Source: Candidatus Aminicenantes bacterium
GTDB taxonomy: Bacteria; Acidobacteriota; Aminicenantia; Aminicenantales; Saccharicenantaceae
Direction of reading: 5' to 3'
Assembly (NCBI GenBank): GCA_037447475.1
Contig: JBBIGP010000004.1
Span: 7,713 to 71,712 of the forward strand
DNA length: 64,000 nt
In this document: positions 12,614 to 56,191 of the stretch, in pieces
Numbering within the stretch: the first letter of the stretch is position 1
Layout of the letters: each line of letters begins with the position of its first letter
Notes under the pieces: model-generated
What the model saw: only the letters and a program-made list of their open reading frames with translations
What the model was told of the DNA's origin: nothing
The model's database searches: none
Translations under genes and position numbers: made by a program

Positions 12614-12663
12614 CTTTTCTTTCGGGGCGGTGTTACACTTCCCTCCGGAGCGAAGACGGTCCC

Positions 12664-31867: not shown

Positions 31868-34576
31868 ATGAAAAAGCCGCTCATCGCGCTGGGCATGATA
31901 GCCCTGTTCCTCATGACGGCCGCCGTCTCCGCGCAGGAGCGCGGCTCGGTCCGCGGCGTCGTCAAGGACCAGGACGGGAACGCCATCCAAGGCGCCACCG
32001 CGACGATCGCGGGGGCATTCCTTCCGCGGGGGAGGGAGTTCGTCACCGGCCGTGACGGGATCTTCCTCTTTCAGGCCCTGCCGCCGGGCAATTATACGCT
32101 TCTCATCATCCATCCGCAGATGATGGACTATACGTCCGATGTCATCGTGGCCCTCGACCGGCAGACGGCCGTCAACGTCACGATGTCCGCCGTCGGCCGG
32201 GTCCAGGAGGAGATCACGGTCATGGCCGCCTCGCCCATCGTGGACCTGAAATCGACGTCGATCTCCGCGAGCTGGCACAAGGACCTCGTCGAGAAGCTGC
32301 CCATGGGCCGGTCCTACGCCTCGCTCTTCCAGCTGGCCCCCGGGGTCGCGGACAACCGCGATTTCGCGCCCAATGCCGGGGGGAACAAGCAGGACAACGT
32401 CTATCTCTACGACGGCTCGAACATCACGAATCCCCTTTTCGGGTATCTCGGGGCGAACTTCTCCGAGCTCGACATCCAGGAGGTCAACATCAAGAGGGGA
32501 GGCGTCACCGCCGAGTTCGGGCGGGCCGCGGGAATGGTCACCAACGCCGTCACTAAATCGGGCTCGAACACGGTCTCAGGCTCGATGCGGTTCATCTTCG
32601 AGCCCGCCGCGTTCACGGCCGGCTTCGTCGACCCCAACATCGTCACTAAATACAACCAGTACCAGCCGGCCGTCGGCGTCGGCGGCCCTCTCGTCAAGGA
32701 CAAGCTGTTCTGGTACGTCTCGGGGAACCTCCCTTACTCCCTGACCACGGGCCGGGTCAACAACTTAGGCAGCGTCCCGGATTCCAAGAGGACCTCGAAC
32801 GAGTTCTTCGGCAAGATCACCGCCAACCCCCACAAGGCCCACACGATCACCCTGAGCATCCGCAACAACGACTACAAGAACAGAGACGCGGGGATCGGCG
32901 TCAACGACCATCCGAGCGCCGCCTACGACAGCGAAGGATTGAACCGGATCATCTACGGATCTTGGGTCTGGACGATCTCCCAGAACACGATCCTCGAGAC
33001 CCGCTACAACCACGTCAACGAGGACTATTCCGCTGTTCCCATTACGGATCTCGGCTACCGCCCGGCCTTCGACATCAACAACCTTCCGGCCATGGGCTAT
33101 TTCCGGACGGCGACAGGCTATATCGTCGGCGGGGCCACGGCCAGCGGCCAGTTCGTCGGCGGCTATTCAATGAAAGACACCCAGAACTTTTTCCGGGATG
33201 AGCTCAAGTTCGTCCTGAGCCACTATGCGGATTTCCGCGGGCACTCCCATGTGCTGAAGGCGGGATTCTCTTACGACGACGGCGGGGAGTACCTGGACAG
33301 GATCGCCAACGGTTGGGGCTCCATCACCGTGACCACCTACGGAGGCCAGCCCGTTTTCCGGGCCGCGTATTACTCCGAGCAGGCCCCCCAGGATTCCCGG
33401 GGCCGGACCTATTCCATCTTCATACAGGACACGGCCACGATCGGCGAGCGCTTGACCCTGACCGCGGGCCTGCTCTTCAACCGGGACGAGTTCAGCGCCA
33501 AAACGGCCGCCGAAAAGAACACCTTCCTCAGATTCAGTTTCGAGCAGGAAGTCCAGCCGCGCATCGGGCTCGCGTTCACCCTCGACCCCAAAGCCGGCGA
33601 CAAGATCTACGCCAACTGGGGCCGTTACAACAACATGGACAACCGCAGCCTGTCCCGGGCCGCAGCCCCTATCCGGATCTTTCTGTCCGATGCCTATTTC
33701 CTCCGCTCGGACGGCTCCCTGATCGCCGACCTTCCCCGCACCGCGGAGACCGGCAAGGTCATCCTGCCAGGCCTCAAACCGACCTACACGGATGAGGTCG
33801 TGGGCGGATACAGCCGGCCGCTCGGCCGCGTCTGGAGCATCGATGTCTGGGGCCAGTATCGGACCATGAAGAACGTCATCGAGGATTTCCCGACCCGTAA
33901 CAGGGAAACCTCCCCAAGCCAGTATGTTTACGCAAACCTCAACGGGCAAACCATCTCTTATGGCGGGAACCCTGCGTTCGAAGCCGGCAAGGCCCGCCGC
34001 GTCTACAAAGCCGCCAGCTTCGAGCTCAAGAAGCAGTACGCGGACCGCTGGTCGATGACGTTCATGTACACCTGGAGCCGTCTCGAGGGGAACTGGGACC
34101 TCGACTATGCCGCGTCGGCGTTGTTCTACGCCTCTTCCGCTCTCGAGGATGGCCCCGGCCTGTACGTCAGCGACCCCAACCGCGACGGGCTCCTTATCGG
34201 GCACAGGACCCACGTCCTCAAGTTCTTCGGAAGCTGGGAATTCTACAAGAACTTCACCCTGGGCTGGTTCAGCCGGATCCAGAGCGGCCGTCCTTGGGAA
34301 TCGCGGGGCTTGGATTACGTCAACAGCTACCGCAGATACCTGGAGCCGGCCGGATCGAACACCCTCAAGGACTGGGGCAACCTCGACCTACAGGTGTCCT
34401 ACGCAATCCCCATTGGCCGGACGTTCCACGGCATAATTGAGGCCCGCATCATGAACCTCTTCAACGACCAGACGGCGCTGACCATCGACCAGCGCGCAGA
34501 CCAGCCCACTTTCAAGAACCCGACATCCTATGCGCCGCCGAGGAAGTTCGCACTCTCGTTCCACCTCAACTTCTGA
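31868..34576 (+). CDS. TonB-dependent-receptor-like outer-membrane beta-barrel with N-terminal carboxypeptidase-regulatory (CarbopepD_reg) domain
   Basis: 902 aa; signal peptide MKKPLIALGMIALFLMTAAVSAQE; VRGVVKDQDGNAIQGATATIAG...GNYTLLIIHP Ig-like domain; C-terminal ...FALSFHLNF beta-barrel terminus; AT-rich promoter region upstream. Confidence 0.75.
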   Translation: MKKPLIALGMIALFLMTAAVSAQERGSVRGVVKDQDGNAIQGATATIAGAFLPRGREFVTGRDGIFLFQALPPGNYTLLIIHPQMMDYTSDVIVALDRQTAVNVTMSAVGRVQEEITVMAASPIVDLKSTSISASWHKDLVEKLPMGRSYASLFQLAPGVADNRDFAPNAGGNKQDNVYLYDGSNITNPLFGYLGANFSELDIQEVNIKRGGVTAEFGRAAGMVTNAVTKSGSNTVSGSMRFIFEPAAFTAGFVDPNIVTKYNQYQPAVGVGGPLVKDKLFWYVSGNLPYSLTTGRVNNLGSVPDSKRTSNEFFGKITANPHKAHTITLSIRNNDYKNRDAGIGVNDHPSAAYDSEGLNRIIYGSWVWTISQNTILETRYNHVNEDYSAVPITDLGYRPAFDINNLPAMGYFRTATGYIVGGATASGQFVGGYSMKDTQNFFRDELKFVLSHYADFRGHSHVLKAGFSYDDGGEYLDRIANGWGSITVTTYGGQPVFRAAYYSEQAPQDSRGRTYSIFIQDTATIGERLTLTAGLLFNRDEFSAKTAAEKNTFLRFSFEQEVQPRIGLAFTLDPKAGDKIYANWGRYNNMDNRSLSRAAAPIRIFLSDAYFLRSDGSLIADLPRTAETGKVILPGLKPTYTDEVVGGYSRPLGRVWSIDVWGQYRTMKNVIEDFPTRNRETSPSQYVYANLNGQTISYGGNPAFEAGKARRVYKAASFELKKQYADRWSMTFMYTWSRLEGNWDLDYAASALFYASSALEDGPGLYVSDPNRDGLLIGHRTHVLKFFGSWEFYKNFTLGWFSRIQSGRPWESRGLDYVNSYRRYLEPAGSNTLKDWGNLDLQVSYAIPIGRTFHGIIEARIMNLFNDQTALTIDQRADQPTFKNPTSYAPPRKFALSFHLNF

Positions 34577-34799
34577 TCCGGCGTTTCGTTCGGGAAGAAA
34601 AGGGCGGCGACGTCTTCTTTTCGGCGGCGAGCACCCCGGCGGCCATGAACCCCCGGGGGGACATCTCCTGGATCCAGACCCGGATCGTCTCGAGAGGGGC
34701 GCCGATGGATTCGTGGACGGCCTCCGTGACGGCCGCGAGCAGGGCCTTCTTCTGATCGTCCGTCCGGCCTTCGAGGAGGTGGATCTCGATGAGCGGCAT
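34566..34799 (-). CDS. 4-oxalocrotonate tautomerase family protein
   Basis: MPLIEIHLLEGRTDDQKKALLAAVTEAVHESIGAPLETIRVWIQEM, catalytic Pro1 after Met. Confidence 0.7.
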   Translation of the reverse strand: MPLIEIHLLEGRTDDQKKALLAAVTEAVHESIGAPLETIRVWIQEMSPRGFMAAGVLAAEKKTSPPFSSRTKRRIRS

Positions 34800-34906: not shown

Positions 34907-35254
34907 ATGACCATAGCGACCCGAGACACGGACGGCGTTGTCATTTTCGACATCACGGGCGAGATCCGGCGCTCCGACAACATGGAAACGACTCTCCATC
35001 ACCTCGTCAAGTCCCACCTCGACCGGGGCAAGCGCAGGATCATGCTCAACTTGGAGAAGGTCGATTTCATCGACAGCTTCGGCGTCGGCGAGATCCTCGC
35101 TAGCTACATCTCCACCCAGAACCTGGGCGGGAGGTTCAAGCTCTTCAGCATCTCGAAAAAGCTCCTCCTCATCTTCCAGATCACGATGCTGACCAAGGTC
35201 CTCGACATCTACGAGGACGAGGGCTGCGCCCTGCGGAGTTTCGAACAGGCGTGA
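34907..35254 (+). CDS. STAS-domain anti-sigma-factor antagonist (SpoIIAA/RsbV-like)
   Basis: 115 aa; ...VVIFDITGEI...LNLEKVDFIDSFGVGEILASY... with phosphorylatable Ser in DSFGVG context. Confidence 0.8.
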   Translation: MTIATRDTDGVVIFDITGEIRRSDNMETTLHHLVKSHLDRGKRRIMLNLEKVDFIDSFGVGEILASYISTQNLGGRFKLFSISKKLLLIFQITMLTKVLDIYEDEGCALRSFEQA

Positions 35255-35281
35255 CCGGGCCGGCGCTGAGCGCGACGCTCC

Positions 35282-37849
35282 ATGCCTGACGACGGCCGGC
35301 TGAACAGGTTCCTGAACCGTTTCGGCTTCGCCGATGTCCGCGTCCCCGAAACGCGGGCCGTGTCCTATCTCTTCGCCCTCTTCTTCCTGACGACATTCTC
35401 GTTCTACATCATCAAGCCGGTCAAGGAGACCTTCCTCATCGGGGTGACTCCCGCCTGGTGGCCGTACGCGGACCTGGCCACGGCCCTGCTCATCGGCTTC
35501 GTCGTGGCCCTCAACGCCAGGCTCCTCAACCGCCTTCCGCGGCGGGCCTACTTGACGGGGACCGTCCTGTTCTTCGCCGCCTGCTTGTTCGTCTTCTGGT
35601 ACGTTTTCGACGCCGCCCTGCAGCTCCAGATCCGGACGCCCGTGATCCACTCCTCGGCCATTTTCGGCGTCATTCCCTTCCAGGTCGCCGTCCGCAACAT
35701 CTGGCCCCTTCCGGTGTTCGCCTTCAGCTTCTTTTCCGATGTCTTCATCGCCATGTCCGTCACCCAGTTCTGGATCGCGGTCAACGATACCCTCGATCCC
35801 TACCAGGCGAAGAGGACGGTCGGCCTGTTCGTCTCGGGGGGGCTGTTGGGCGGGATCGCCGGCGCCCTCCTGACGTCCCTCCTCGTCCGCGTCGTCGGCC
35901 CCGAGAACCTTCTCCTCGCCTGCCCCGGCATCCTCCTCGTCGTCCTGGCCGCCGTCCGCCTCGTCTACGGCGAGCAGAAAAAGCACAGGGGGGAGGCCGA
36001 GCCCTCGGCATCCCCGCCCAAGGCCCGGGTCGGCTACCTGGAGAGCTTCGGCGCCGTCCGGAGGAACAGGTATCTCCTGCTCCTGGCCGGGCTCCTGGCC
36101 TCGGCCATGGTCGCCGGGTCGCTCATCAACTATCAGTTCAAGATCGTCGTCAAGAGCGTCTTCGCGAGCAGCGTCGACCGGACCTCGTTCCTGGGCTCGT
36201 TCTTCTTCGCCATTCTCGTCCTCTCGACCCTTTTCCATCTGGCCGCCACGCGCCTCGTCCTGAAGAATTTCGGCATCCGGCTGGCCCTCCTCGTGGCCCC
36301 CGTGGTCCTGCTCCTCGGCTCGCTCTCGGTCTTCCTCCTCCCGGCCGGCGCCCTGATGGCCTGGGCCAGTCTCGTCAGGGGCGGCGACAAGATCTTCGAC
36401 AACACGATCGGCCAGTCGGTCCGGGAGCTGCTCTACATCCCCGTCCCGGACGAGATCAAGTACAAGGCCAAGATCTTCATCGACATGTTCGTCAACAAGT
36501 TCGCCGTCGGGCTCGGGGCCGGGCTGTTCCTCCTGCTCTACCACGCGTCGCGCTTCGCCTACAAGGCCGAACCGGCGCAGGTCCGGGAGGTCGGCGTCCT
36601 GGCCGTCGCCTTCATCGCCCTCTGGATGGTTCTCACGGGCGTCGTCTACGGGGAGTACCCGAGCGTCGTGAAGAAGGACCTGGCCCGCAAGTGGAAGGAC
36701 GCCGACAAGGTCGTCGAGGAGAGCGTGGACGTCGATGTGACCCGCCGCGTCTTCGACACCGTCCAGAGCCGGGAGCGGAGCGCGACCCTGTACGTCATGA
36801 ACGTCTTCGACCTCATGCGCCGCGGCCGCCTCAGCCCCGAGCTCAAGGAGCTCTTGGGATCCCAGAGGGACGAGCTCAGGGCCCGGTCCATGGACTGCTT
36901 GTTCGACGTCGGGGGAGAGGTCTTCTTCCAGGGGTTCGAGGAGGCCATCGCCGACGAGGACTTCGGGAAAGAGGTCGAGAAGGTCATCCAGTCGGACGAT
37001 TACAAGGCCCTCATGGAGGGACGCCTCGAGACGGTCGCCGGGTCCGCGTCGGAGATCGAGCGCATGGAAGCGGCCAGGCTCATCGGGATGATGGACCCGA
37101 CGCCCCGGGCCATGAGGGTCCTGAGCGTCCTTCTCCAGGACCCCTCGTCCGAGGTCGCAACGTACGCCCTCGACAGCGCGGCGATCCACCGGAGGAAAGA
37201 GCACATCCCCCTGGCTCTCTCCCAGCTGAGCAATCCCTTGACCTGCCAGGGCGCCCAGGCCGCCTTGGCCGCCTACGGCCCGGCCGCCGAGGAGGCCCTG
37301 AGAGCGGCCCTCCAGGACGAAGACCTGCCCCCCGGCGTCCGCCGGGCCATCCCCGATGTCCTGGGCCGGATCGGGACCCAGCGGGGGGCCGACATCCTTC
37401 TCGCCGAGCTCGGGAGGTGCGGCGAGGACATGGAGCCGGAGATTGTCGGAGCCCTTTACAGGATCCGCTCCGCCCGGCCGGGCGTTCTGTTCAAGGAGAA
37501 GAAGGTCCGTCCCGAGATCCTCCGCCTGGTCAGGAAAGCGGGGGAGATCTTCCTCGAGAGGGTCCTGGACGGACAGGACCCCGGCGCCACGGCGGCCCTC
37601 GACCTTCATGTCAAGCGGATTTTCGACCTGCTGACGCTCGTCCAACCGGCCGAGGACGTCGTCAAGGCCTACCAGAACATCCTTCAAGGGACGAAGCGGT
37701 CTGTCGATTATTCCCTCGAGCTTCTCGACAACCTGCTCGATCGGGAGCTCAAGAGGGCCCTCTTCCCGCTCCTCGAGGACCTCCCGCCCGAGGACAGGAG
37801 CGTCCGGCTGAGAAAGGCCCTTCGGGGCCTCGGCCGGGGCCGGGGTTGA
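35282..37849 (+). CDS. TLC/AAA-family (ATP:ADP antiporter-like) nucleotide transporter homologue fused to C-terminal HEAT/PBS-lyase-like repeats
   Basis: N-terminal ~480 aa polytopic with TLC-like signature FALFFLTTFSFYIIKPVKETFLI; C-terminal ~350 aa of repeated helical pairs (...QGAQAALAAYGPAAEEALRAALQDEDLPPGVRRAIPDVLGRIG...). Confidence 0.6.
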   Translation: MPDDGRLNRFLNRFGFADVRVPETRAVSYLFALFFLTTFSFYIIKPVKETFLIGVTPAWWPYADLATALLIGFVVALNARLLNRLPRRAYLTGTVLFFAACLFVFWYVFDAALQLQIRTPVIHSSAIFGVIPFQVAVRNIWPLPVFAFSFFSDVFIAMSVTQFWIAVNDTLDPYQAKRTVGLFVSGGLLGGIAGALLTSLLVRVVGPENLLLACPGILLVVLAAVRLVYGEQKKHRGEAEPSASPPKARVGYLESFGAVRRNRYLLLLAGLLASAMVAGSLINYQFKIVVKSVFASSVDRTSFLGSFFFAILVLSTLFHLAATRLVLKNFGIRLALLVAPVVLLLGSLSVFLLPAGALMAWASLVRGGDKIFDNTIGQSVRELLYIPVPDEIKYKAKIFIDMFVNKFAVGLGAGLFLLLYHASRFAYKAEPAQVREVGVLAVAFIALWMVLTGVVYGEYPSVVKKDLARKWKDADKVVEESVDVDVTRRVFDTVQSRERSATLYVMNVFDLMRRGRLSPELKELLGSQRDELRARSMDCLFDVGGEVFFQGFEEAIADEDFGKEVEKVIQSDDYKALMEGRLETVAGSASEIERMEAARLIGMMDPTPRAMRVLSVLLQDPSSEVATYALDSAAIHRRKEHIPLALSQLSNPLTCQGAQAALAAYGPAAEEALRAALQDEDLPPGVRRAIPDVLGRIGTQRGADILLAELGRCGEDMEPEIVGALYRIRSARPGVLFKEKKVRPEILRLVRKAGEIFLERVLDGQDPGATAALDLHVKRIFDLLTLVQPAEDVVKAYQNILQGTKRSVDYSLELLDNLLDRELKRALFPLLEDLPPEDRSVRLRKALRGLGRGRG

Positions 37850-37850
37850 A

Positions 37851-40034
37851 ATGGCCGGACGCGTCGTCTACAATGAGGGCGCAGGGGATGACATGCCCGA
37901 CTTCTACGTCTATCCCAAGACGGGCGATCCGTTCACCGTGCCGCTGAAGCCCGGCAAGATCACCATCGGCCGGGCGCCGACGAACGACCTCGTCCTTTCC
38001 GACCAGTTCAGCTCGGGATGTCACGCCTCCGTCTATCCGACGACAAGCGGATTCGTCCTTCTCGATCACGGCAGCAAGAACGGCACGTTCGTCAACGGCA
38101 AGAAGGTCACGGGGGAGATCCTCCTGGCCCGGGGGGACGAGATCCTCATCGGCTCGACGAGGATCTACTTCGACCGGGAGTTCCAGAGCAGCATCGAGAT
38201 GGTCGAGGGGACGACCTTCACCCACAGCTCGAACACCATCATCCAGGTCAAGGACATCCTGAAGAAGGCCCCCACGGCCGGCGACTACAGGACGCCCGGA
38301 GGGGAGCTCGACCTGGGGAAGCTCCAGCAGGAGCAGAAGATGATCGCGGTCATGGGGGAGGTCAGTCAGGCCCTCATCTACCACATGCCCCTCGACAAGC
38401 TGCTCAACCACATCATGGACGTTCTCATCCAATACCTGCCCATGGACCGGGGCGTCCTGATGCTCAAGGACCCGGCGACGGGCGAGCTCGCCCACAAGGT
38501 CGTCCGCGTCCAGAGCGGGTCCCTGAGGACGCAGAACATCGCCATCAGCAAGACCATCGTCCAGACCGCCGTCGAGAAGAACTCGGCCATCCTGCTGTCC
38601 GACATCCGGTCGGACGAGAGGTTCGGCGGCCAGGCCAGCGTCATCCAGGCCCAGATCCATTCGGCCATGTGCATCCCCCTCTGGAACAACCAGAACATTC
38701 TCGGGCTCATCTACGCCGACCGGGCCTCCCTCGTCGAGCAGTTCACGGAAGACGATCTGAAGCTGCTGACCCTGCTCGCCAACCTGGCCGCGGTCAAGAT
38801 CGAGAACGCCCGGCTCTACGAGAATTCCCTCAAAATGGAGCAGATGGAGCGCGAGATGGCGATGGCCGTCCAGATCCAGAAGAACTTCCTGCCCCGGGGG
38901 AACCCGTGGTTCGAACCCTACGACGTCAGCGGCAGCATGCGGGCCTGCCACCACGTCGGCGGGGACTACTACGATTTTCTGCCCGAGGCCGACGACCGGC
39001 TGGGCATCGTCATCGCCGACGTCTCGGGGACGGGGGTCAGCGCGGCCCTCCTCATGGCCAACCTGAGGGGGGCCCTGACCGAGAAGTTCCCGGTCACGCC
39101 GGACCTGGGCGAGCTGGTCGCCAAGCTCAACGACTTCGTCCATTCGAGCTCGGACAGCCATTGCTTCATTTCTTTTTTCCTGGCCGTCCTGGACCGCGCC
39201 CGGGACAGGCTGACCTACGTCAATGCCGGCCACAACCCCCCCCTGCTCGCGGACGATCGCGGCCGGATCAGCCGGCTCGAGAGCACGGGTCTCTGTCTCG
39301 GCATGTTCCCGGCCCGGGCCTACGAGCAGCGGACGATCGACCTCGGGCCGGGGGACGTGCTGTGCCTCTACACGGACGGGATCGTCGAGGGCCGGAACAA
39401 GGGCGGGGAGGAATTCGGGGAGGAGAGGCTCGCGGGGATCCTCCGGTCCGCCGCGGCCATGCCGGCCCGGGGGATCATGGAAAGGATCTACGAGGAGGTC
39501 CTCGCCTTCACGGACTGCTCCGCGGCCGGCGACGACATGACCCTCGTCGTCGTCCGGAAGAACCCGCGGCGGGAGGACGGCGAACGGTCTTCGACGGAAA
39601 GGGACGTGCGGGAGATCCGGGTCCCCGCCGCTCTCGAAGCCGTCGACCGCGTCAGGGAGTTCCTCCGGGCCTACATGGGCGAGCAACGGGTCCCCGACGA
39701 GGAGGCCCTGGCCGTCGAGCTCTCGCTCCACGAGATCTGCGTCAACATCGCGATGTACGCCTACTCCGGGGGTCCGGCGGGAGAGATGGCCGTCCGGATC
39801 TGGAACGATGACGGCATGCTGTTCCTCGAGATCCGCGACCGGGGCGTCCCCTTCGACCCCGCGGGAAAGCCGGACCCCGACCTTCTCGTCAAGGTCCGCC
39901 GCGGGCAGCGGGGCGGATTAGGCGTCTTTTTCTTCAAGACCCTCATGGACGGCTTCACTTACCGCCGGGAGAACGGGGAGAACGTCCTGACCGTCCGCAA
40001 GCGGATCCCGCCCCGGCCCGCTCCGGTTCAGTAG
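37851..40034 (+). CDS. FHA - GAF - PP2C(SpoIIE/RsbU-like phosphatase) - HATPase_c(RsbW-like anti-sigma kinase) four-domain partner-switching protein
   Basis: FHA: ITIGRAPTNDLVLSDQFSSGCHASVY...GSKNGTFVNGKKV; GAF region ~aa 170-330; PP2C motifs GGDYYDF, IADVSGTGVSAALLMANLRGAL, YVNAGHNPPLL, LYTDGIVEG; C-terminal ATPase ...ELSLHEICVNIAMYAY...GMLFLEIRDRGVPFDP. Confidence 0.8.
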   Translation: MAGRVVYNEGAGDDMPDFYVYPKTGDPFTVPLKPGKITIGRAPTNDLVLSDQFSSGCHASVYPTTSGFVLLDHGSKNGTFVNGKKVTGEILLARGDEILIGSTRIYFDREFQSSIEMVEGTTFTHSSNTIIQVKDILKKAPTAGDYRTPGGELDLGKLQQEQKMIAVMGEVSQALIYHMPLDKLLNHIMDVLIQYLPMDRGVLMLKDPATGELAHKVVRVQSGSLRTQNIAISKTIVQTAVEKNSAILLSDIRSDERFGGQASVIQAQIHSAMCIPLWNNQNILGLIYADRASLVEQFTEDDLKLLTLLANLAAVKIENARLYENSLKMEQMEREMAMAVQIQKNFLPRGNPWFEPYDVSGSMRACHHVGGDYYDFLPEADDRLGIVIADVSGTGVSAALLMANLRGALTEKFPVTPDLGELVAKLNDFVHSSSDSHCFISFFLAVLDRARDRLTYVNAGHNPPLLADDRGRISRLESTGLCLGMFPARAYEQRTIDLGPGDVLCLYTDGIVEGRNKGGEEFGEERLAGILRSAAAMPARGIMERIYEEVLAFTDCSAAGDDMTLVVVRKNPRREDGERSSTERDVREIRVPAALEAVDRVREFLRAYMGEQRVPDEEALAVELSLHEICVNIAMYAYSGGPAGEMAVRIWNDDGMLFLEIRDRGVPFDPAGKPDPDLLVKVRRGQRGGLGVFFFKTLMDGFTYRRENGENVLTVRKRIPPRPAPVQ

Positions 40035-40921
40035 AGGACCTTCTCTTCTCCGTTCATCCTGACGAGCCTGTCGATCTCCTTGAGGACGAGGTCCCTGCGG
40101 ACGAGCACGGCCTTGATCTCCTCGTCCGTGAGGTACTCGCCCACGACGCCCTTGACGGCCTCGGCATCGAGCGTCTTGATCTTGTCGACGATGGCCCGGG
40201 GCAGCTCGCTCATGAGCTTGGGGCCTTCCTTGTGCTTTTCCGTGTAGATCAGGCTCTTCGTGAACTTCCCCGAGGCCCGGAAGGACCGGGAGTGGTCGAT
40301 GAGGATCATCCGCCAGTCGGGCTGGGTGATGAGGATCTGGTTCTGGTGGCGGTCCTCGTTGGCGATGAGATTGTCCCAGAACCGCTGCAGGTAGGTCGCC
40401 CGGTTCCAATAATAGACCCTGATGGGCGGGACCTTGAGGTTCTTCTGCTCCTTGTCGCGGAGCGTGATGCAGTCCTCGACCCAGAGCTGGCAGGACCCGC
40501 GCTCCGCGCGGTAACGTCGCTCGACGGTCGGGGGGACCATGTTGAGCCCGAGGTGCTTGTCGAGGAGATAGGCGGCGACCTCGTAGTTCCAACCCTCCCA
40601 ATACCCGCCCATCCGGCCTTGGGCGTTCTTCCACAGGGCCCGGTGGGACACGTCGTCCTTTTTCAGGGTCAGGACCCAGGGGCTGGTCACGGATTCCCTT
40701 CCTGTCATCTGCCGGCTGTCGACGACCTCGGCCGTCCTCAGGAACTCCTCCCACTTCTCCCGCTCGGCCAGGTCTTCGGGCGTGAACTGGGCGGCGCCGA
40801 GTCGCGGGGCCGGCCCTCCGGGGCCGTTGGCCGGGCTCATGGCGTGGCCCAGGAGGACCACGGACAAGACGCCGGCGGCGATGGCGCCGGACACGATGGA
40901 TACGATCGCGGACTTTTTCAT
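40028..40921 (-). CDS. secreted protein with atypical kinase-like domain (HipA/CtkA/PI3-4K-like motifs), paralog 1
   Basis: Signal peptide/anchor MKKSAIVSIVSGAIAAGVLSVVLL; conserved EEFLRTAE, WKN, YEVAAYLLDKHLGLNMVPPT, catalytic-loop-like ANEDRHQNQIL (NxDxHxxN), metal-binding-like ILIDHSRSF; shares ~45% identity by eye with the next gene. Confidence 0.5.
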   Translation of the reverse strand: MKKSAIVSIVSGAIAAGVLSVVLLGHAMSPANGPGGPAPRLGAAQFTPEDLAEREKWEEFLRTAEVVDSRQMTGRESVTSPWVLTLKKDDVSHRALWKNAQGRMGGYWEGWNYEVAAYLLDKHLGLNMVPPTVERRYRAERGSCQLWVEDCITLRDKEQKNLKVPPIRVYYWNRATYLQRFWDNLIANEDRHQNQILITQPDWRMILIDHSRSFRASGKFTKSLIYTEKHKEGPKLMSELPRAIVDKIKTLDAEAVKGVVGEYLTDEEIKAVLVRRDLVLKEIDRLVRMNGEEKVLY

Positions 40922-40970
40922 TCTTCCCTCCCTGATCTATCCGGTCGATGGCCCAGCCATCTCCTCTCCC

Positions 40971-41807
40971 TCAGTAGAGGACGGCGGCTTCGCCCTGTTC
41001 CCGGACCATCTGGCGGATCTCCTTGAGCAGGAGGTCGCGGCGGGCCAGTACGGCCCGGATCTCCTCGTCCGTGAGGTACTCTCCCACAGCGGCCCGGATG
41101 GTCTCGAACGATAACTCCCGGATCCGGTCCACGAACGAGCGTGGCAGGCGCCGGAAGAGGAACGGCGTCCCCTGCATGGACGTCTGCAGGCCCCGCTGTC
41201 CGAACATCAGCCTTTTCGTGTGCTCCTTCGTCGCGCGGAACGACCGCGAGTGGTCGATGAGGATCATCCGCCAGTCCTCGGTGTAGAGGATGTTCTGCTG
41301 GTTCCGGTCCTCGTTGGCGATGAGACTGTCCCAGGCGCGGGTCAGCCACTTCATCTTTTCCGTGTGTTCCGTCACGGAGTCGGGAATGCGGATGTTGTTG
41401 TCGACGATCTTTTCCAGGCTGTGCTTGTTCTCGGCCCAGAGGACGAGGGCGCCGCTCTGTCCCTGGAACTCCCGCTCGACGGCCGGTGGGATCATGTTCA
41501 AGCCGATGAGCTTGTCGAGGCGGTAGGCGGCGATCTCGAATCGCCAGCCCTCGTAGAAGCCCAGCTGCATGCCGCTCGGGTTCTTCCAGCAGGCCGCCGC
41601 CTCGCGGTCTCCCTGTTTGAGAGTGAGCTTGAAGGGCTTGGTCACCCCTTCGCCGATCTCCTTGAAGCCGGCGATCTCGGCCGTCCTCAGGAACTCCTCG
41701 AACGCTTCTCTCGCGGCGATCTCGTCCGGGGTGAATTGCCCGAACAGGGCGGCCGGAGCCGCTATGAGCAGGAGAAGGCAAACGGCGGCCCGAAACGCAC
41801 ATATCAT
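40971..41807 (-). CDS. secreted protein with atypical kinase-like domain, paralog 2
   Basis: Trimmed to MICAFRAAVCLLLLIAAPAALFGQ signal peptide; same motifs: EEFLRTAE, WKN, FEIAAYRLDKLIGLNMIPPA, ANEDRNQQNIL, ILIDHSRSF, C-term ...GEYLTDEEIRAVLARRDLLLKEI...VLY. Confidence 0.5.
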   Translation of the reverse strand: MICAFRAAVCLLLLIAAPAALFGQFTPDEIAAREAFEEFLRTAEIAGFKEIGEGVTKPFKLTLKQGDREAAACWKNPSGMQLGFYEGWRFEIAAYRLDKLIGLNMIPPAVEREFQGQSGALVLWAENKHSLEKIVDNNIRIPDSVTEHTEKMKWLTRAWDSLIANEDRNQQNILYTEDWRMILIDHSRSFRATKEHTKRLMFGQRGLQTSMQGTPFLFRRLPRSFVDRIRELSFETIRAAVGEYLTDEEIRAVLARRDLLLKEIRQMVREQGEAAVLY

Positions 41808-41915
41808 CGAATCTTCCTCCGATGGCACCCTGATGCTCCTATCATAAGGAGGGTCAAGGGGGAAATCAAGCCCAGCCCGAGCCCCGTTTCCGCTTCGTGT
41901 GGCCGTCGAGGGGGA

Positions 41916-43406
41916 TCAGGCTTTGGCAAGGGCATCCTGGGCGGTCTTCCGCCTTCGGTAGGCGGGAATGATCTTGAGACAGATGCCGATCAGGACGGCC
42001 ACGGCGAAGACGTTGAGGAGAGCGTAGTTTTCGATGTGAAGTCCGAGAAGGTGGACGCCGATGAGGACGGCCAGCGCTGAAAGCGTGTCTCCCCCCCTGA
42101 CAAAGAAGGTGTCGATAGCCGCCTTGGCTTTATACTTCTCCTCCCGCTTGGTGACCAGGAACAGCGCGGCCTTGGTCGTATTCTGAAGGGAATAGTCGGT
42201 GCCGTTCTCGAAGGCCTTGACCCAGCGGACGAGCACGAGAACGGCTCCGAAGGAAATCAGCGTGTAGCCGCCCAGGGCGATGAGAGGAAGGAAGAGCAAG
42301 GCCCCTCCCACGCCGATCCACTTGAAGATGCGCGAGACCAGGAAGAGCTGGATGATGAGGGCGATCAGATTGGTCAGGAACTGGTAGTTCATGAATGCGC
42401 TGTGAATGGCCTTGCTCTCCGTTCCGGCGGGCAAGGCCGGGGACGCCGCCGGGCGCTTCCGATCGGCTCCATCGTCGGGAAGCGGGACGAGCCGGCCCCG
42501 CGGGCCTCCCGCGGCTCCATCGGCTATCGACTCCCTGACCGTGACGGCGGTGATGATATATTCCCCGGTCGCATTGATGAAATTATAGAGGCCGATCATG
42601 GCCGCGATGAGAAGAAGGTAGCGGCTCTTGAAGATCAGCCGGAACCCTCCTCCCGCTCTTAGCGGCTGTTCACTGGCGACGCTTTCCTCCTCGGCCTTGG
42701 CCAGGCCCTTTTCGCGGGCCTCGCGGGTGTCCCGGACGGCCCGGTTGTGGATATGCCAGGCCAAGGCGATGCAGAGCAGCAGGATGAGGCCCGCGATGAG
42801 CATGAGCTCGTATTCCCAGTTCTCCCCCAGGATATCCCTCAACCGCTTCATGATCGGCAAGGTCGCGACGAGCCATCCGAGCGTGGCTCCCAGGGCGACG
42901 AGCGGAAACGTGCGCTTTCCGACCTCGTCCGAATAGAGGTCGTTCGCGAAGCCCCAGAACTGGGCGATCACGAAATAATTGAATATGCCGATCCAGATGA
43001 AGAACATGATCCCCATGGGCTTGACGGCCATCCCGCTCAAGTTGAGGAAATAGAAGACGACGAGGTTGGAGATGAAGAATGATGTTGTCCAAGTGATAAG
43101 GATATGCCGAGGCACCCTGGAAGCGAGGCGACTGAATGCCTTGATGACGAAGATGAAGAGAACGGCTTGGGCCCCGCTCAGGTAGCTCTTGACTTGAGGG
43201 GAACCCTGGTCAACAAGGAGAAGCGACTCGCGCAGCGGCTTGAGGATGTAGTAGGCCAGAAGCAAAAGAAAGATGTTGAGGGCGAGCAGGAGGGCCTTCA
43301 GGGCTTCCCCCTTGCGGACGTCGGCGAACAGCCTGAGGAAGCCGTAGCCGATGTTCGAAGTAGCGCCGCCCGACGGCGGGATCCCCCCGCGGATTCTATC
43401 CCCCAT
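41916..43406 (-). CDS. TLC/AAA-family ATP:ADP antiporter-like nucleotide transporter (Npt/Tlc homologue)
   Basis: 496 aa, ~12 TM; TLC signature LKALLLALNIFLLLLAYYILKPLRESLLLV; internal Gly/Pro/Ala-rich ~40-aa loop insertion (…ADGAAGGPRGRLVPLPDDGADRKRPAASPALPAGTE…). Confidence 0.65.
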   Translation of the reverse strand: MGDRIRGGIPPSGGATSNIGYGFLRLFADVRKGEALKALLLALNIFLLLLAYYILKPLRESLLLVDQGSPQVKSYLSGAQAVLFIFVIKAFSRLASRVPRHILITWTTSFFISNLVVFYFLNLSGMAVKPMGIMFFIWIGIFNYFVIAQFWGFANDLYSDEVGKRTFPLVALGATLGWLVATLPIMKRLRDILGENWEYELMLIAGLILLLCIALAWHIHNRAVRDTREAREKGLAKAEEESVASEQPLRAGGGFRLIFKSRYLLLIAAMIGLYNFINATGEYIITAVTVRESIADGAAGGPRGRLVPLPDDGADRKRPAASPALPAGTESKAIHSAFMNYQFLTNLIALIIQLFLVSRIFKWIGVGGALLFLPLIALGGYTLISFGAVLVLVRWVKAFENGTDYSLQNTTKAALFLVTKREEKYKAKAAIDTFFVRGGDTLSALAVLIGVHLLGLHIENYALLNVFAVAVLIGICLKIIPAYRRRKTAQDALAKA

Positions 43407-43427
43407 GTCGACCTCCCTCCGGGACGC

Positions 43428-45311
43428 TCAGATCAGGACATGGCCCTCCCCGCGGGTCTCGATGAGCCTTTTGATGATCCGGATGATGAGGTCACGGCGG
43501 GAATGGAGGGCTTCGATCTCTTCTTTGTCGAGATGGGGCGACAGAAGGAGGAAGACCGCCTTCCTGTCCCACCCCAGGAGCTTGCCGAAGAGGTCTTTCG
43601 AGCACTTGCGGATCTCGCATCCGGGCGGAAGGCTCTTCCGGGGCGCGAAGGCTTCCGAGAAATCGACGCGGTAGATCCGCTGGTCGTCGCGGCTGACGAG
43701 CACGTCCCGGTCGTTGTCGCACTCTTCGTGGACGAGCATCTCGAAGAGCCGCAGGTCTTCCCGGTCCCGCTCGAAGGCCGCGGGCCGGGCCGGGGCGAGC
43801 TTCTGCTCCTTCCAGTCGAATTCCGAGATGGCGTTCTCGACGAAGACCTGCAGGGAGCCGGGGATCCCGTCGATCTCCCGCTCGATGACAGGCGGGACGA
43901 ACGCCAGCTTGAGGTACTTGGCGAGGTCGTAAGCGGCCAGCTCGTAGCGGTAGCTGTCGGGGAGCGGGTGAGGGCGGCGCCGGTCGATGTACTTGAACAT
44001 GGCCCTGCGCGTGACGCCGTCCTTCTCGAGGGTCACCCGCCAAGGCTCCGTCCGCCCGGCGGCGGCCGTCTTGCGGGCCATGGCCTTGGCCGTCCTGAGG
44101 AACTCCTCGACGGCTTTGGCCGAAGCGAGCGGTTCCGGGCGGGTGACGACCGGAGAGCTGCGGGCGGCGGCCTCTTCCGTCTCGCCCCAGAGCTCGAACC
44201 GTCCGTCCTCGTAGATGAGGGCCGCGGGCAGGCCGCCGTAAAACTCGGAGATCCCGGTGTCGATGACGAAGACCTTGCCGCCGAAGCGGCTGACGGTCTC
44301 GAGGGTCGCGATGGGGCTCGACCCGGCGTTGTTGACAGGCAGATAGCTGTGGCCGACGACGATGGCCCGGGCCCCGAGGTTGTCCAGGATACGGTCGACC
44401 TCGGCCTGAGCGGTGCCTTCGATATGGGTCGTCAGGCCCCGGAACCAGACCGGGCCGTCCGGCGCGTAGACGAGCTTGGGCTTGAAGGGCCTAAAATAGC
44501 GATGAGGGGACTTGATCCTCTCCCGGAACTCCTCGAGCTCCTTTCTCATGAGGTCGTTCGTCTCGCGCAACGGCCGTTTCGAGTAGTGCTCGTTGACGCC
44601 CCCGTGGAGGTAGACGACGTCGTTGATCTTGATGATGGTGTTCTTCGTCAGCAGCCAGCTTCCGTACAGGTCGTTGAAGGCGTTGACATAGGCCAGGCGG
44701 GCCTCCCGGTCGTGGCGGATGACACGCTGCCAGTAGGCCCGCAGAGCTTCGTCCGTCCCGAGATCCAGGCCCTCGGCCTCGGCCTGGCGGCGCCGGTCGC
44801 GGGGGAGCCTGGCGATGTAGGCCGCTTCCAGGGACCTGCGGACGCCGTCCGGGAGGAAGGAGACGAACTGCTCGGGCGTGACGTACTGAGGATAGTCCAG
44901 GGCGATGCCGGTGATGTTCATCTCCTCGTGGTTGCCGATGAGGACGTGGACCAAGCCGCCGGCCGCCTCGGCTTCCTTTTCGAGGCGCATGAGAAGGTCC
45001 ATGATCTTCCTGGCGTCGGGGCCGCGGTCCATGATGTCGCCGAGCTGGACGAGGTGGGCCGTCCCGGCGGTCCATCGGAGGTCCGCGTCGATGACGCCGA
45101 CCTCGGGGTTCGAGAGGATGAAGACGAACCGGTCGTAGTCGCCGTGCAGGTCGCCGACGGCGACGACGCGGCCGACGCCGGACCAGGCATAGGGGATCTC
45201 GGAGGCGGGAGAGAGCGGGACATGGAGCAGGATGAGCAGGAGAAGAATAAACAGACCTTTGAGGGGCCGACATGGGGCCTGTCGCGACCATCCCCTGCTG
45301 CGTTCGGGCAT
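43428..45311 (-). CDS. secreted calcineurin-like metallophosphoesterase fused to divergent atypical-kinase-like domain (paralog 3)
   Basis: Signal peptide ...LFILLLLILLHVPLSPA; MPE motifs VVAVGDLHGDYDRF, LVQLGDIMDRGPDARKIM, VLIGNHEEMN, ...IVVGHS...; C-terminal 250 aa aligns with paralogs 1/2 (EEFLRTAK, YELAAYDLAKYLKLAFVPP, ...GHVLI) but catalytic-loop region altered (HEECDNDRDVLV; YRVDFSEAF). Confidence 0.6.
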   Translation of the reverse strand: MPERSRGWSRQAPCRPLKGLFILLLLILLHVPLSPASEIPYAWSGVGRVVAVGDLHGDYDRFVFILSNPEVGVIDADLRWTAGTAHLVQLGDIMDRGPDARKIMDLLMRLEKEAEAAGGLVHVLIGNHEEMNITGIALDYPQYVTPEQFVSFLPDGVRRSLEAAYIARLPRDRRRQAEAEGLDLGTDEALRAYWQRVIRHDREARLAYVNAFNDLYGSWLLTKNTIIKINDVVYLHGGVNEHYSKRPLRETNDLMRKELEEFRERIKSPHRYFRPFKPKLVYAPDGPVWFRGLTTHIEGTAQAEVDRILDNLGARAIVVGHSYLPVNNAGSSPIATLETVSRFGGKVFVIDTGISEFYGGLPAALIYEDGRFELWGETEEAAARSSPVVTRPEPLASAKAVEEFLRTAKAMARKTAAAGRTEPWRVTLEKDGVTRRAMFKYIDRRRPHPLPDSYRYELAAYDLAKYLKLAFVPPVIEREIDGIPGSLQVFVENAISEFDWKEQKLAPARPAAFERDREDLRLFEMLVHEECDNDRDVLVSRDDQRIYRVDFSEAFAPRKSLPPGCEIRKCSKDLFGKLLGWDRKAVFLLLSPHLDKEEIEALHSRRDLIIRIIKRLIETRGEGHVLI

Positions 45312-53723: not shown

Positions 53724-56162
53724 CTACTTGACGACGACCTTGTCCCGCCAAACGGGATCGGACCGCCCGTCGCCGTCGGCGTCAACATAAATGGGGTTTG
53801 TCAGGGCGTAGGGAAGTGCGGCGTTCTCCGCCTGCCCGTCGCCGGAGCGGCGCTGGACGAGAGGGAAGAGCGACGCCCGGCCGACGACCTCGACGGCGAT
53901 CCAGGCGTCGCGCCCGAGCGTGAGCCGGACGCGGTCGCGGAACTTGACGACCGCGCCGGGCCTCGTCCGGACGGCCAGCGGTTCCCGCCGCAGGCCGTCG
54001 ACGACAACCCGGACCTCCGAGACATCCATCCACGGCGCTCCCGTCACTGTGATGTCCAGGTCGACGCGCCCGTTCCGGGCCGTCACGAGGTCCCCGAACG
54101 TCGCCCGGCCGTTGGCCCGGACGGCGACGACCGGCCCGGTGCTGACGAAGGACCGGCCCGCCTTGACGGCCTCGACGAGGGCCCCGGCGTCGAGCCCGGC
54201 GCCCTTGGGCCCCTTGTAGAGAACGTAGGTCCGGGCGTATCCCGGCTCGCCGCCGTCGATCGTGTGGGCGTCGGAGGTCCCGACGATCCGGATGGGATAA
54301 CCCCGATTGAGCAGGTGGAACCAGTCCTCGATGGACTGGCGGTTGGCCTCGTTGACGGCCGGCCCGTTCATGGCCTCCATGACGTCGAACCTCAGGTCGA
54401 AGGGCGCGGCCGCGGTCGCCGCGAACTCGGGGTCCAGCTGATAGGACGCGAAATAGTCCAGGCCGGGCGTGCGGGGATGGTTGACGTGGATGAGCGTCCC
54501 GGGGTTCTTCTCCCGGCTGAGGGAGAACAGCGTGCCCGGGGTCTCGTCCCGGACGCTGACAGCCCCGCGGCCGGGTTCGCCGGGCCTGACGGCGTCGGGG
54601 AAGGTGTTGTAGTGGAGGCTGCCCGTCCGGGCCGTGACCTCGTTCCCCGGGATGACCGCGAGGAACGCGTCCAATCCCAGGGCCTTCAAGTCGGGCTCGT
54701 AGTCCGTGACGAAATTGTGATCGGAGGCCACGGCGACCTCGATGCCCTCGGCGATGACGCTCCGCAGGCGCTCGGGGATGCCAACGGCCCCGTCCGAGTT
54801 CCGGGTGTGCATGTGGGAGTCGAGGGAGATGAGCCCCCGGGTGTCGACCGCTTTCTCGATCGTCAGGTCGAGCTGAAGGTTCTCGCCGTTGAGGACCTCG
54901 ATGACCCTCGTTTCCCGCGTGTATTCGGGGCCCCGGGAGCAGGCCACGAGATAGGTCCCGACGGGCAGCTGGACTTCGAGGACGTCATTCATCGGGAAGA
55001 CGGAGTTCTTGAAGGTCTCCCAGCTCCGGCCGGTCTCGATCGGGTCGTCGGGTTCGAAATAGGGGGAGGGGATCGGAGCCAACCCGATGAACGAGACTTT
55101 GCCCGGCACGTGCCTGCCGCGTCCGTCCCTTATCGCGATCTTGAGGCTGCCGAACGCCGGGACGGCCAGCTTCCATGACCGGCTCTCCGGCCGGCCGTCA
55201 ATCGCGAAGACCCGCTCGACGACCGCCGGGAAGAAATGGGCCTGAGCGCGGTACGTCCCTTTCGGCGCCGGGAACGAGATGGGGGCCGCCCGGCCGAGGA
55301 ACGTCCGGAAGAAAACGGCTCCGGTGGCGGGCTCCCGGACCAGGATCTCGACCGGGCCGTCGAACTCGCCGAGGTCGAGCTTGACTATCTCGGTCGCGGC
55401 GCCCGCCAGCCGGTAGATGCGCTCGAGGACGTCCGCGATGTCCGTGCCGGTCAGAAGACCGTAGGCGACCTTGTGGACCTGGCCGGGGCGCAGGGTGCCT
55501 GGCAACGGCTTGTCCGAGGTTTCTACAGGGTTCGGATTGAACCAGGCCAGAACATGGTCGGGCCGCTCCCAGACGCGGAAATTCAGCTTCGGAAAGGCCT
55601 CGGCATGGAAGGGGCTGAAATTGAAGTTCTGGGCGGCGCTGGCCCCCAAGCCGAAGCTCAAGTCCTCGACCACCGCCTTGCCTGCGTTCCGGATCTCGGA
55701 CGTGACGGAGATCCTGCCGGCGTCGAAGGCAAAATCGTAGCGGGTCCTGATCTCGAGCCGGGCCCCGCCGGGGCCTTCGCAGGAGGAGAGCGCGACGATG
55801 CCCGTGCCGGACCGCTCGACCGACCGGGTCGAAGCGGCCAGCGCCTTCCCGGCGATCCGCACAGCCGGCGCCCCGAACTGGGCCATGAGCCTTTTCTCGG
55901 CGCCTTTCGGCGCGAAGGCCAGCACGAAGCCGTTGATCTCGGGGTGGTCGTAGTTGATGGTCGAGAACATCGTCCGCGGCGAGCCGGCGACGACGGCCGT
56001 GTATTTCCCGTCGGTGACCAGGAGATCGCCTTTCCGGACGAACTCCCGCCACGGGGCAGGGAGCTCTCCCGTGTCCTCGACGGTCTTGATCTCGAGGCTC
56101 GCGGCGAGGACCGGGCCGCAAAGGAGCAGGACGAGGATGGCCAGACGGGCGGCTTTTTTCAT
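53724..56162 (-). CDS. large secreted protein with C-terminal PHP-type (CehA/McbA-like) metal-dependent hydrolase domain
   Basis: Trimmed to MKKAARLAILVLLLCGPVLAAS; PHP motifs ISLDSHMHTRNSDG, VAVASDHNFV, IVGTSDAHT; N-terminal ~450 aa without recognisable motifs. Confidence 0.55.
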   Translation of the reverse strand: MKKAARLAILVLLLCGPVLAASLEIKTVEDTGELPAPWREFVRKGDLLVTDGKYTAVVAGSPRTMFSTINYDHPEINGFVLAFAPKGAEKRLMAQFGAPAVRIAGKALAASTRSVERSGTGIVALSSCEGPGGARLEIRTRYDFAFDAGRISVTSEIRNAGKAVVEDLSFGLGASAAQNFNFSPFHAEAFPKLNFRVWERPDHVLAWFNPNPVETSDKPLPGTLRPGQVHKVAYGLLTGTDIADVLERIYRLAGAATEIVKLDLGEFDGPVEILVREPATGAVFFRTFLGRAAPISFPAPKGTYRAQAHFFPAVVERVFAIDGRPESRSWKLAVPAFGSLKIAIRDGRGRHVPGKVSFIGLAPIPSPYFEPDDPIETGRSWETFKNSVFPMNDVLEVQLPVGTYLVACSRGPEYTRETRVIEVLNGENLQLDLTIEKAVDTRGLISLDSHMHTRNSDGAVGIPERLRSVIAEGIEVAVASDHNFVTDYEPDLKALGLDAFLAVIPGNEVTARTGSLHYNTFPDAVRPGEPGRGAVSVRDETPGTLFSLSREKNPGTLIHVNHPRTPGLDYFASYQLDPEFAATAAAPFDLRFDVMEAMNGPAVNEANRQSIEDWFHLLNRGYPIRIVGTSDAHTIDGGEPGYARTYVLYKGPKGAGLDAGALVEAVKAGRSFVSTGPVVAVRANGRATFGDLVTARNGRVDLDITVTGAPWMDVSEVRVVVDGLRREPLAVRTRPGAVVKFRDRVRLTLGRDAWIAVEVVGRASLFPLVQRRSGDGQAENAALPYALTNPIYVDADGDGRSDPVWRDKVVVK

Positions 56163-56191
56163 GGATTCGGACCTCCTCAAGGAAGAATGAC

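Follow-up and report, generated by a model that had tools for sequence, protein, structure and literature searches.

A 64-kb stretch of genomic DNA from a Candidatus Aminicenantes bacterium (hereafter the window; 66% G+C) contains, at positions 34907-40034, three genes encoding a STAS antagonist of the SpoIIAA/RsbV type, a membrane protein of the NTT-HEAT family, and a 727-residue protein in which FHA, GAF, and PP2C phosphatase domains are joined to an RsbW-type serine kinase domain (Table 1). The usual gene order in the class Aminicenantia (phylum Acidobacteriota) is STAS, NTT-HEAT, FHA-GAF-PP2C phosphatase, and RsbW-type serine kinase, and the best overall explanation of this arrangement, which we regard as evenly balanced between right and wrong, is a partner switch with the NTT-HEAT protein, and not a sigma factor, as its output. 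The fusion alone is unremarkable, and the part worth following is the conserved coupling to NTT-HEAT, whose function has been open since the family was described in 2017; through this operon, a large family gains a link to a tractable regulatory switch.

The three open reading frames (ORFs), all on the plus strand, have exactly the ends given in a preliminary description of the locus, and the G+C content at third codon positions (GC3) is 0.89-0.92 in the called frames. Because the spacers are only 27 nt (STAS/NTT-HEAT) and 1 nt (NTT-HEAT/fusion gene), we consider the genes a single operon. This three-gene operon is self-contained, as the downstream genes lie on the opposite strand in convergent orientation and a divergent intergenic region of 107 bp separates the STAS gene from a tautomerase gene (34566-34799, minus strand). 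The latter, a small 4-oxalocrotonate-tautomerase-like gene with an ORF of 77 residues, has small counterparts annotated as PF01361 at the equivalent position in loci L001 and L003.

When one genome per species was scanned with an alignment of NTT-HEAT proteins, 80 loci were obtained, all from Aminicenantia-type metagenome-assembled genomes (MAGs), and domains were mapped on their six-frame translations. Wherever the upstream side of NTT-HEAT is present, its immediate neighbour is STAS (58/58 loci), and wherever the downstream side is present, FHA-GAF-PP2C follows directly (66/66). The preliminary description had called the module an orphan and treated the NTT-HEAT gene (as TLC-HEAT) only as a possible two-hybrid partner; with STAS and phosphatase flanking NTT-HEAT in every assessable locus of the class, the first of these labels no longer applies. 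Two layouts were found. In type 1 loci, NTT-HEAT is single-copy and at least 50% identical to that of the window, the phosphatase is followed by a separate RsbW-like gene (30 loci) or fused to it (L004), and a convergent block encoding U297, U285, a plain TLC transporter, and a Metallophos protein comes next. In type 2 loci, for example in Ca. Saccharicenans, NTT-HEAT shows approximately 40% identity and occurs as a tandem duplication flanked by STAS and the phosphatase; the block just described sits upstream in divergent orientation. The contiguous core of STAS, NTT-HEAT, and phosphatase thus persists through duplication and rearrangement of its flanks.

The residues on which a serine-phosphorylation cycle depends are conserved as well. 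The STAS protein passes the NCBIfam model TIGR00377 'anti-sigma factor antagonist' (59.9 bits, cut-off 53.45). Its motif FIDSFGVGEILASY / FIDSFGVG contains Ser57, the predicted phospho-acceptor, which aligns with the phosphorylated Ser58 of SpoIIAA and does not vary among the STAS genes that could be extracted from related loci (61/61). The domain order that had been proposed for the 727-residue protein was also borne out, with Pfam placing FHA at residues 37-101, GAF at 181-317, SpoIIE/PP2C at 381-569, and HATPase_c_2 at 591-717; the Pfam E-values of the operon domains (Table 1) are far beyond chance. No Response_reg match was found by Pfam in this protein, the N-terminus consisting of FHA and GAF, and the chain ends 10 residues past HATPase_c_2, the STAS domain being encoded by a separate gene 2.6 kb upstream. 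The phosphothreonine-binding residues of the FHA domain (G40, R41, S55, H58, N77), whose best PDB match is the FHA domain of Rv1747 (8.7e-12), and the metal-binding residues of the PP2C domain (D372, D375, D390, D509, G510) are invariant in 76 family members, and conserved residues of the GAF pocket include D199, R200, S233, D251, S271, and C274. The PP2C domain matches the structures of RssB (3es2, 7.5e-15) and Rv1364c (3ke6, 3e-13), whereas the kinase domain aligns to RsbW (6m36, 3e-7) and SpoIIAB (1til) and retains the N-box HEICVN, the G1 box DRGVPFD, and the G2 box GGLGV. The STAS serine, the GHKL kinase boxes, and the PP2C metal aspartates of RsbV/RsbW/RsbU-type modules are all present, and on the strength of these residues the operon probably encodes an active serine-phosphorylation module. 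The cognate sigma gene that such modules carry was not found here: the operon, the window sequence within 17 kb of it, and the flanks of related loci have none.

NTT-HEAT as a candidate output of the switch

The NTT-HEAT protein has an N-terminal TLC/NTT-type domain (residues 1-455) with about 12 predicted transmembrane segments and a HEAT-repeat tail (residues 456-855). A scan of transmembrane segments and loop charge found its central loop to be rich in lysine and arginine, and the 400-residue tail is predicted to be cytoplasmic. Pfam scores of 47.2 bits for TLC (gathering score 21) and 36.5 bits for HEAT_2 (gathering score 27.7) give the protein the architecture of the NTT-HEAT family of Major et al. 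2017, TLC/NTT with C-terminal HEAT repeats. Its profile matches the solved NTT structures 9j3n (E = 1e-15) and 9j3j (3.5e-13), a distant relation, and judging by its score with the exchanger model TIGR00769 the protein is only a distant relative of the characterised Npt/NTT exchangers. A profile search among 1.84 billion representatives retrieved 12,550 relatives, with 1,899 representatives at E <= 1e-30. NTT-HEAT proteins have been described as monophyletic, widespread, and uncharacterised (Major, Embley and Williams 2017, PMC5381601); they often precede or are fused to a cyclic-nucleotide-binding domain, and Chlamydia trachomatis carries a conserved, uncharacterised NTT-HEAT gene (PMC5381601).

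Outside the Aminicenantia, we sampled selected loci and 80 further metagenome loci (scan alignment of 9 sequences). The ORF after NTT-HEAT encodes a cyclic-nucleotide-binding (cNMP-binding) protein in 23/67 metagenome loci, which agrees with Major et al. 2017 (PMC5381601), and never a STAS, SpoIIE, HATPase_c_2, or FHA protein in these 67 loci, for which Pfam was run on downstream ORFs only. Outside the class, STAS, PP2C, and kinase genes were sought with profiles built from Aminicenantia sequences in addition to Pfam; the STAS profile had no match in the 80 metagenome loci, with the limit that a very divergent upstream STAS could escape it. A separate cNMP-binding gene lies downstream of NTT-HEAT in L088 and L090, L089 has a fused one together with a Hanks-type kinase, and no regulator was found near NTT-HEAT in L084 and L086; in the window operon, Pfam found no cNMP_binding domain. 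As far as tested, the association of a partner switch with NTT-HEAT is therefore specific to the Aminicenantia, where by analogy the switch would take the slot next to NTT-HEAT that is held elsewhere by a cNMP-binding protein. Locus L092 (4001-10584) encodes in turn NTT-HEAT, a cNMP-binding protein, a PAS histidine kinase, a response regulator combining a receiver (REC) with a SpoIIE (PP2C) domain, and a REC protein, so that NTT-HEAT has a PP2C neighbour here too, one with another input domain and with no STAS detected. In L088 (3460-10056), a Metallophos gene is located directly upstream of NTT-HEAT.

In the mechanism that we propose, the C-terminal kinase domain probably phosphorylates Ser57 of the STAS protein and the PP2C domain probably removes the phosphate, as the intact catalytic residues suggest. 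The FHA domain, reading phosphothreonine probably made by a Hanks-type kinase, and the GAF domain would act as inputs that set the balance between kinase and phosphatase, consistent with their intact ligand-binding residues. By analogy with the cNBD partners of NTT-HEAT, a cyclic-nucleotide ligand of the GAF domain is conceivable, and its sequence speaks neither for nor against one. Depending on its phosphorylation state, the STAS protein, or alternatively the kinase domain, might then bind the cytoplasmic HEAT solenoid, and this binding might switch nucleotide transport or exchange by the NTT domain on or off, two steps drawn from gene context only. That NTT-HEAT is the partner or the target of the switch has in our view a probability a little short of even. 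Several points weigh against it. Gene context alone cannot tell a target from a sensor or a passenger. Nucleotide transport is itself a putative activity, the protein scoring 35.2 bits against a cut-off of 387.2 for the NTP/NDP exchanger model TIGR00769. The clade with duplicated NTT-HEAT has no RsbW-like kinase gene in the operon; an HATPase_c_2 gene was found beyond the block in L036 (838-1284) and L077 (393-962), the only two loci reaching that far. Finally, the sigma factor targeted by HsbR and CrsR, RpoS, is encoded far away from them (PMC6482189), and the lack of a nearby sigma gene does not equal the lack of a sigma factor.

The preliminary description had noted that no sigma-B-like gene is adjacent and had considered an output other than a sigma factor, and both points hold up. 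No sigma factor is encoded within or adjoining the window operon, the gene tables of L001, L002, L003, and L087 contain none, no ECF-like (extracytoplasmic function) sigma factor was found in 87 loci, and the flanks of 14 representative loci share no recurring sigma family. Within the 64 kb, sigma genes are limited to a divergent ECF pair (16149-16703, minus strand; ~17050-17637, plus strand), each member followed by its own putative anti-sigma gene (15637-16443, minus strand, with a zf-HC2-like motif; 17624-18049, plus strand). We rejected both as targets of the switch, since each is paired with an anti-sigma gene and no ECF-like counterpart was found near the operon in other loci. The 342-residue ORF call of the second ECF sigma factor probably has an over-extended start, and an HtrA-type protease (18065-19711) follows the region 15637-18049.

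Less probable than an NTT-HEAT output, and unlikely in our estimate, is a conventional anti-sigma switch in which the RsbW-like domain holds a distantly encoded sigma factor, unphosphorylated STAS frees it, and NTT-HEAT is simply co-transcribed. Such a switch is known for proteins of the same PP2C-kinase order, since HsbR and CrsR act on an unlinked rpoS (PMC6482189) and Rv1364c acts on SigF (PMC9138534), and the kinase domain studied here is homologous to RsbW and SpoIIAB. However, no sigma gene lies in the conserved block of any locus, a result that covers loci and their flanks and not group-3 sigma factors in whole genomes, both ECF sigma factors of the window are accounted for by their own anti-sigma genes, and it would be left unexplained why every assessable locus has NTT-HEAT placed between STAS and the phosphatase, through duplication and rearrangement. 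If a distant sigma factor were nevertheless the target, the operon would be one more RsbUVW variant with an unusual combination of sensors, whereas confirmation of a transporter output would extend partner switching from transcription to the direct control of membrane transport.

The same gene-context evidence fits a reversed flow of information, in which NTT-HEAT is a sensor (transceptor) whose HEAT tail reports nucleotide availability or flux to the phosphatase-kinase and the phosphorylation state of STAS is the output, acting on other partners as with HsbA, SypA, and RbaV. STAS-only proteins whose targets are not sigma factors, or not known, have been described (PMC8256260, PMC6482189), and the STAS protein shows very high conservation throughout the class. 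We nevertheless consider this direction rather improbable, as the phosphatase has dedicated sensors of its own in the FHA and GAF domains and the cNMP-binding partner of NTT-HEAT in other phyla looks like an input to the transporter and not like its output.

Origin of the phosphatase-kinase fusion

The preliminary description had pointed to the union of an RsbU-like phosphatase and an RsbW-like kinase in one polypeptide. The two are indeed fused in the window, but such a fusion is not unprecedented, as PP2C-kinase fusions are already known in HsbR and CrsR (PMC6482189), Rv1364c (PMC9138534), and SypE (PMC8256260), and in the Aminicenantia it is recent and recurrent. Nearly all of the 120 best homologues of the 727-residue protein are 556-572 residues long and lack HATPase_c_2, the only ones among the 120 with this domain being P0001 (93% identical), P0010, P0099, P0107, and P0118. 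The syntenic contig L001 (73% identity) encodes a TonB receptor, the tautomerase, STAS, NTT-HEAT, an FHA-GAF-PP2C protein of 572 residues, and the kinase, the latter as a separate HATPase_c_2 gene of 147 codons 22 nt 3' of the phosphatase gene. More generally, in split syntenic relatives (about 75% identity) the phosphatase gene ends in TGA and is followed by a spacer of 22-25 nt and a 147-residue RsbW-like kinase; in L001 and L005, the phosphatase ends read '...VVVKRNP*' and '...VVVKRKA*', respectively, and the kinase ORF is in the +1 frame. In the window and in L004, CGG/CGA replaces TGA and the spacer has lost one nucleotide. The change of the TGA stop to CGG together with the loss of one spacer nucleotide thus fused the phosphatase and kinase genes in frame, and the old spacer and kinase start are now read as a linker of 18 residues in the window and L004. 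We are highly confident that the single polypeptide arose recently in this way, by the in-frame joining of two neighbouring genes.

The fused and split states differ by just a 1-nt indel and one codon change, and frameshifts do exist in MAG assemblies, for example in L034 and L051, so that a sequencing or assembly artefact, or decay into a pseudogene, had to be considered as an explanation. The same fusion is, however, present in the window, in L004 from a different MAG, and in P0001 from a Joint Genome Institute (JGI) metagenome, at 91-93% identity, and other lineages hold fused genes with different linkers. The ratio of nonsynonymous to synonymous substitution rates (dN/dS) between the window gene and its L004 orthologue is 0.147 overall and 0.12-0.17 across all domains (kinase 0.14), the junction giving 0.15; every domain of the 727-residue protein is under purifying selection. 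With two other public sequences carrying the fusion and selection acting on it, artefact and pseudogene were dismissed, their residual probability being very small. In the long-read MAG loci L034, L051, and L042, operon genes are split into pieces in different frames, which probably reflects homopolymer or indel errors and not pseudogenes and calls for caution in automated counts of fused and split genes.

Fused genes occupy four places on a neighbour-joining tree of the phosphatase part. The clade of the window is 76% identical to the unfused L005 and at most 64% identical to the other fused lineages, P0010 is 70% identical to the unfused L024, and the linkers of separate fused lineages are unrelated in sequence. 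Judged from these sequences, at least two and probably four independent fusions took place in the class Aminicenantia. This recurrence argues that the two enzymes act as one complex.

Neighbouring, probably exported enzymes and Hanks-type kinases

The block that is convergent to the window operon (40028-45311, minus strand) and adjoins the operon in Aminicenantia loci encodes the paralogues U297 and U285, the plain transporter TLC2, and the metallophosphatase MPE (Table 1). MPE has the motifs GDLHGD, GDIMDRG, and GNHE and a signal peptide, and its C-terminus aligns with U297 and U285. The latter two have no Pfam family match and give sub-threshold matches to the PI3/PI4-kinase catalytic loop (Pfam PI3_PI4_kinase, a weak match at E = 0.006), HipA_2, and FAM198, in addition to weak PDB matches to FAM20 and sub-cut-off similarity to TIGR03843. 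An AlphaFold (AF2) model of U297 from 23 sequences is of moderate quality (predicted local distance difference test, pLDDT, 70; predicted template modelling score, pTM, 0.72), and Foldseek matched it to PI4KIIalpha (4hnd, E = 3e-5, TM-score 0.51) and to the secreted Helicobacter pylori kinase CtkA (3akk, TM-score 0.47). U297 contains the motif DRHQNQ...IDH, and members of the U family share the motifs D-x-[HN]-x-x-N and ID[HF]. Based on this model and these motifs, U297 and U285 likely have a kinase fold, and by their predicted signal peptides U297, U285, and MPE are probably extracytoplasmic.

The preliminary description had linked the FHA domain to these neighbouring kinase-like genes. Their likely kinase fold agrees with it, but their predicted signal peptides probably place them outside the cytoplasm and make them poor candidate makers of the ligand of a cytoplasmic FHA domain, so we judged them an unlikely source of its phosphothreonine. 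Membrane Hanks-type kinases with a transmembrane segment and TPR repeats adjoin the operon in 8 Aminicenantia-type loci (Table 1) and are better candidates for this role, or for alternative STAS kinases; no Hanks kinase is encoded within the 64 kb of the window. In Mycobacterium tuberculosis, the Hanks-type kinase PknD phosphorylates STAS proteins and Rv1364c (PMC1847690, PMC9138534). Together with the Hanks kinases also found next to the non-Aminicenantia NTT-HEAT loci L086 and L089, and with the REC-type SpoIIE PP2C in the NTT-HEAT operon of another lineage with no STAS detected (L092), these kinases are consistent with a phosphatase whose direct substrate, perhaps shared with a Hanks-type kinase, is NTT-HEAT or a different phosphoprotein, STAS and RsbW being a secondary timer. 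The conserved STAS serine and RsbW-type kinase, under purifying selection as for a working STAS cycle, and the lack of a Hanks kinase in the window itself speak against such direct action, which we regard as the least probable of the alternative roles for the switch enzymes.

In approximately 35 of the 80 metagenome loci outside the Aminicenantia, from soil and peat (L124-L170), genes for Metallophos, NTT-HEAT, and U-family proteins lie in this order on one strand, sometimes with extra U copies (e.g. L125 2514-7746, L133 2501-9329, L151 2605-9588), and the Metallophos proteins, which have PPP motifs, and U-family proteins bear signal peptides. As NTT-HEAT is accompanied by Metallophos and U-family proteins in these loci too, its link to exported enzymes is older and wider than its link to the partner switch. 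Putative exported kinases beside carriers resembling ATP/ADP exchangers suggest a supply of ATP to the periplasm. By extension, the switch might be the cytoplasmic control unit of an unrecognised envelope system comprising the NTT-HEAT exchanger, exported PI4K/CtkA-like kinases, and a PPP-type phosphatase, in which NTT carriers would export ATP in exchange for ADP to fuel extracytoplasmic phosphorylation and STAS phosphorylation would gate this supply via the HEAT repeats. We consider this extension a long shot; if true, it would provide the first partner-switching module with a transporter output and the first functional assignment for the NTT-HEAT family. Further away in the window, ORFs of 868, 480, and 317 residues with coding-like GC3 (53724-56330, minus strand; 60234-61676, minus strand; 12610-13563, plus strand) match no Pfam family at E <= 1e-4.

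Table 1. Operon genes, protein domains, neighbouring genes, and related loci; positions refer to the window unless a locus is named.
Feature	Position or loci	Strand	Length and matches
STAS antagonist (SpoIIAA/RsbV type)	34907-35254	+	115 aa; Pfam STAS E 4.7e-11
NTT-HEAT protein	35282-37849	+	855 aa; Pfam TLC 2e-12, MFS_1 2.4e-10, HEAT_2 6e-9
Fused sensor phosphatase-kinase (FHA-GAF-PP2C-RsbW-like kinase)	37851-40034	+	727 aa; Pfam
FHA domain, phosphothreonine reader	37935-38174	+	aa 29-108; Pfam FHA 1.1e-16
GAF domain, predicted small-molecule sensor	38388-38807	+	aa 180-319; Pfam GAF 8.3e-17
SpoIIE-type PP2C (PPM) phosphatase domain	38991-39557	+	aa 381-569; Pfam SpoIIE 1.2e-50
Fusion junction	39567-39620	+	aa 573-590; old stop codon, spacer, and kinase gene start, now read as linker
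RsbW/SpoIIAB-type GHKL serine kinase domain	39621-40001	+	aa 591-717; HATPase_c_2 1.4e-25
U297, exported kinase-fold protein (PI4K type II/CtkA-like; fold likely)	40028-40921	-	signal-peptide-like N-terminus
U285, exported U297 paralogue	40971-41828	-	49% identity to U297; probable true start ATG at 41807
TLC2, plain NTT/TLC transporter without HEAT tail	41916-43406	-	496 aa; Pfam TLC 2e-16
MPE, exported PPP-type metallophosphatase with degenerate U-family domain	43428-45311	-	627 aa; Pfam Metallophos 1e-10
Hanks kinase loci	L087 3387-6491; L025, L044, L046, L052, L063, L067, L073		directly upstream of STAS in L087
Duplicated NTT-HEAT loci, part 1	L033, L036, L039, L043-L047, L052, L055-L057, L059, L062-L064		
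Duplicated NTT-HEAT loci, part 2	L068, L069, L072-L076, L081-L083, L087		

Comparison with known systems

A literature search found no paper linking Aminicenantes or NTT/TLC-HEAT proteins to STAS, PP2C, or RsbW modules or to partner switching. The closest parallels to the fused protein are sensor-PP2C-RsbW-type kinase chains that act on a separately encoded STAS protein, in loci devoid of a sigma gene, namely HsbR-HsbA of Pseudomonas and CrsR-CrsA of Shewanella (PMC6482189). Their input is a REC domain in place of FHA and GAF, no NTT-HEAT gene separates STAS from the enzyme gene as it does here, and the fusion in the window is recent and lineage-specific and not ancestral; their targets are RpoS, FlgM, and HsbD (PMC6482189). 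Rv1364c of M. tuberculosis (PDB 3KE6) also has contiguous PP2C and GHKL kinase domains, with residues 369-665 of the window protein matching 3ke6_A (E = 3e-13), and is influenced by a Hanks kinase, PknD (PMC9138534). It differs in uniting PAS, PP2C, kinase, and STAS in one chain and in regulating SigF, while the window has a separate STAS gene and FHA and GAF as sensors. The RsbU/RsbV/RsbW and SpoIIE/SpoIIAA/SpoIIAB systems of Bacillus comprise the same three protein families with the same phosphoserine position, but as separate polypeptides and with sigB or sigF in the operon, where the window operon has a membrane transporter gene and no sigma gene.

Non-sigma targets and STAS-controlled transporters each have precedents. 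SypE has the domain order kinase-REC-PP2C, unlike that of the window protein. As a dual serine kinase/phosphatase acting on a STAS protein (Ser56 of SypA) with a non-sigma target, SypE of Vibrio fischeri resembles the module proposed here (PMC8256260). The SypE-SypA pair belongs to a polysaccharide locus and not to a transporter locus. MlaB on the MlaFEDB ABC transporter is a STAS-fold precedent for the control of a transporter. The C-terminal STAS domains of SLC26/SulP proteins are another example of a STAS fold regulating or stabilising a membrane transporter (PMC8256260). For neither is cycling by an RsbW/PP2C pair known, and both transporter families are unrelated to NTT. Finally, the window operon resembles the known NTT-HEAT and NTT-HEAT-cNBD (cyclic-nucleotide-binding domain) arrangements (PMC5381601) in combining TLC/NTT and C-terminal HEAT repeats with a small regulatory gene attached in the operon, and it differs from them in that the regulator is a three-component phosphorylation switch instead of a cyclic-nucleotide-binding domain.

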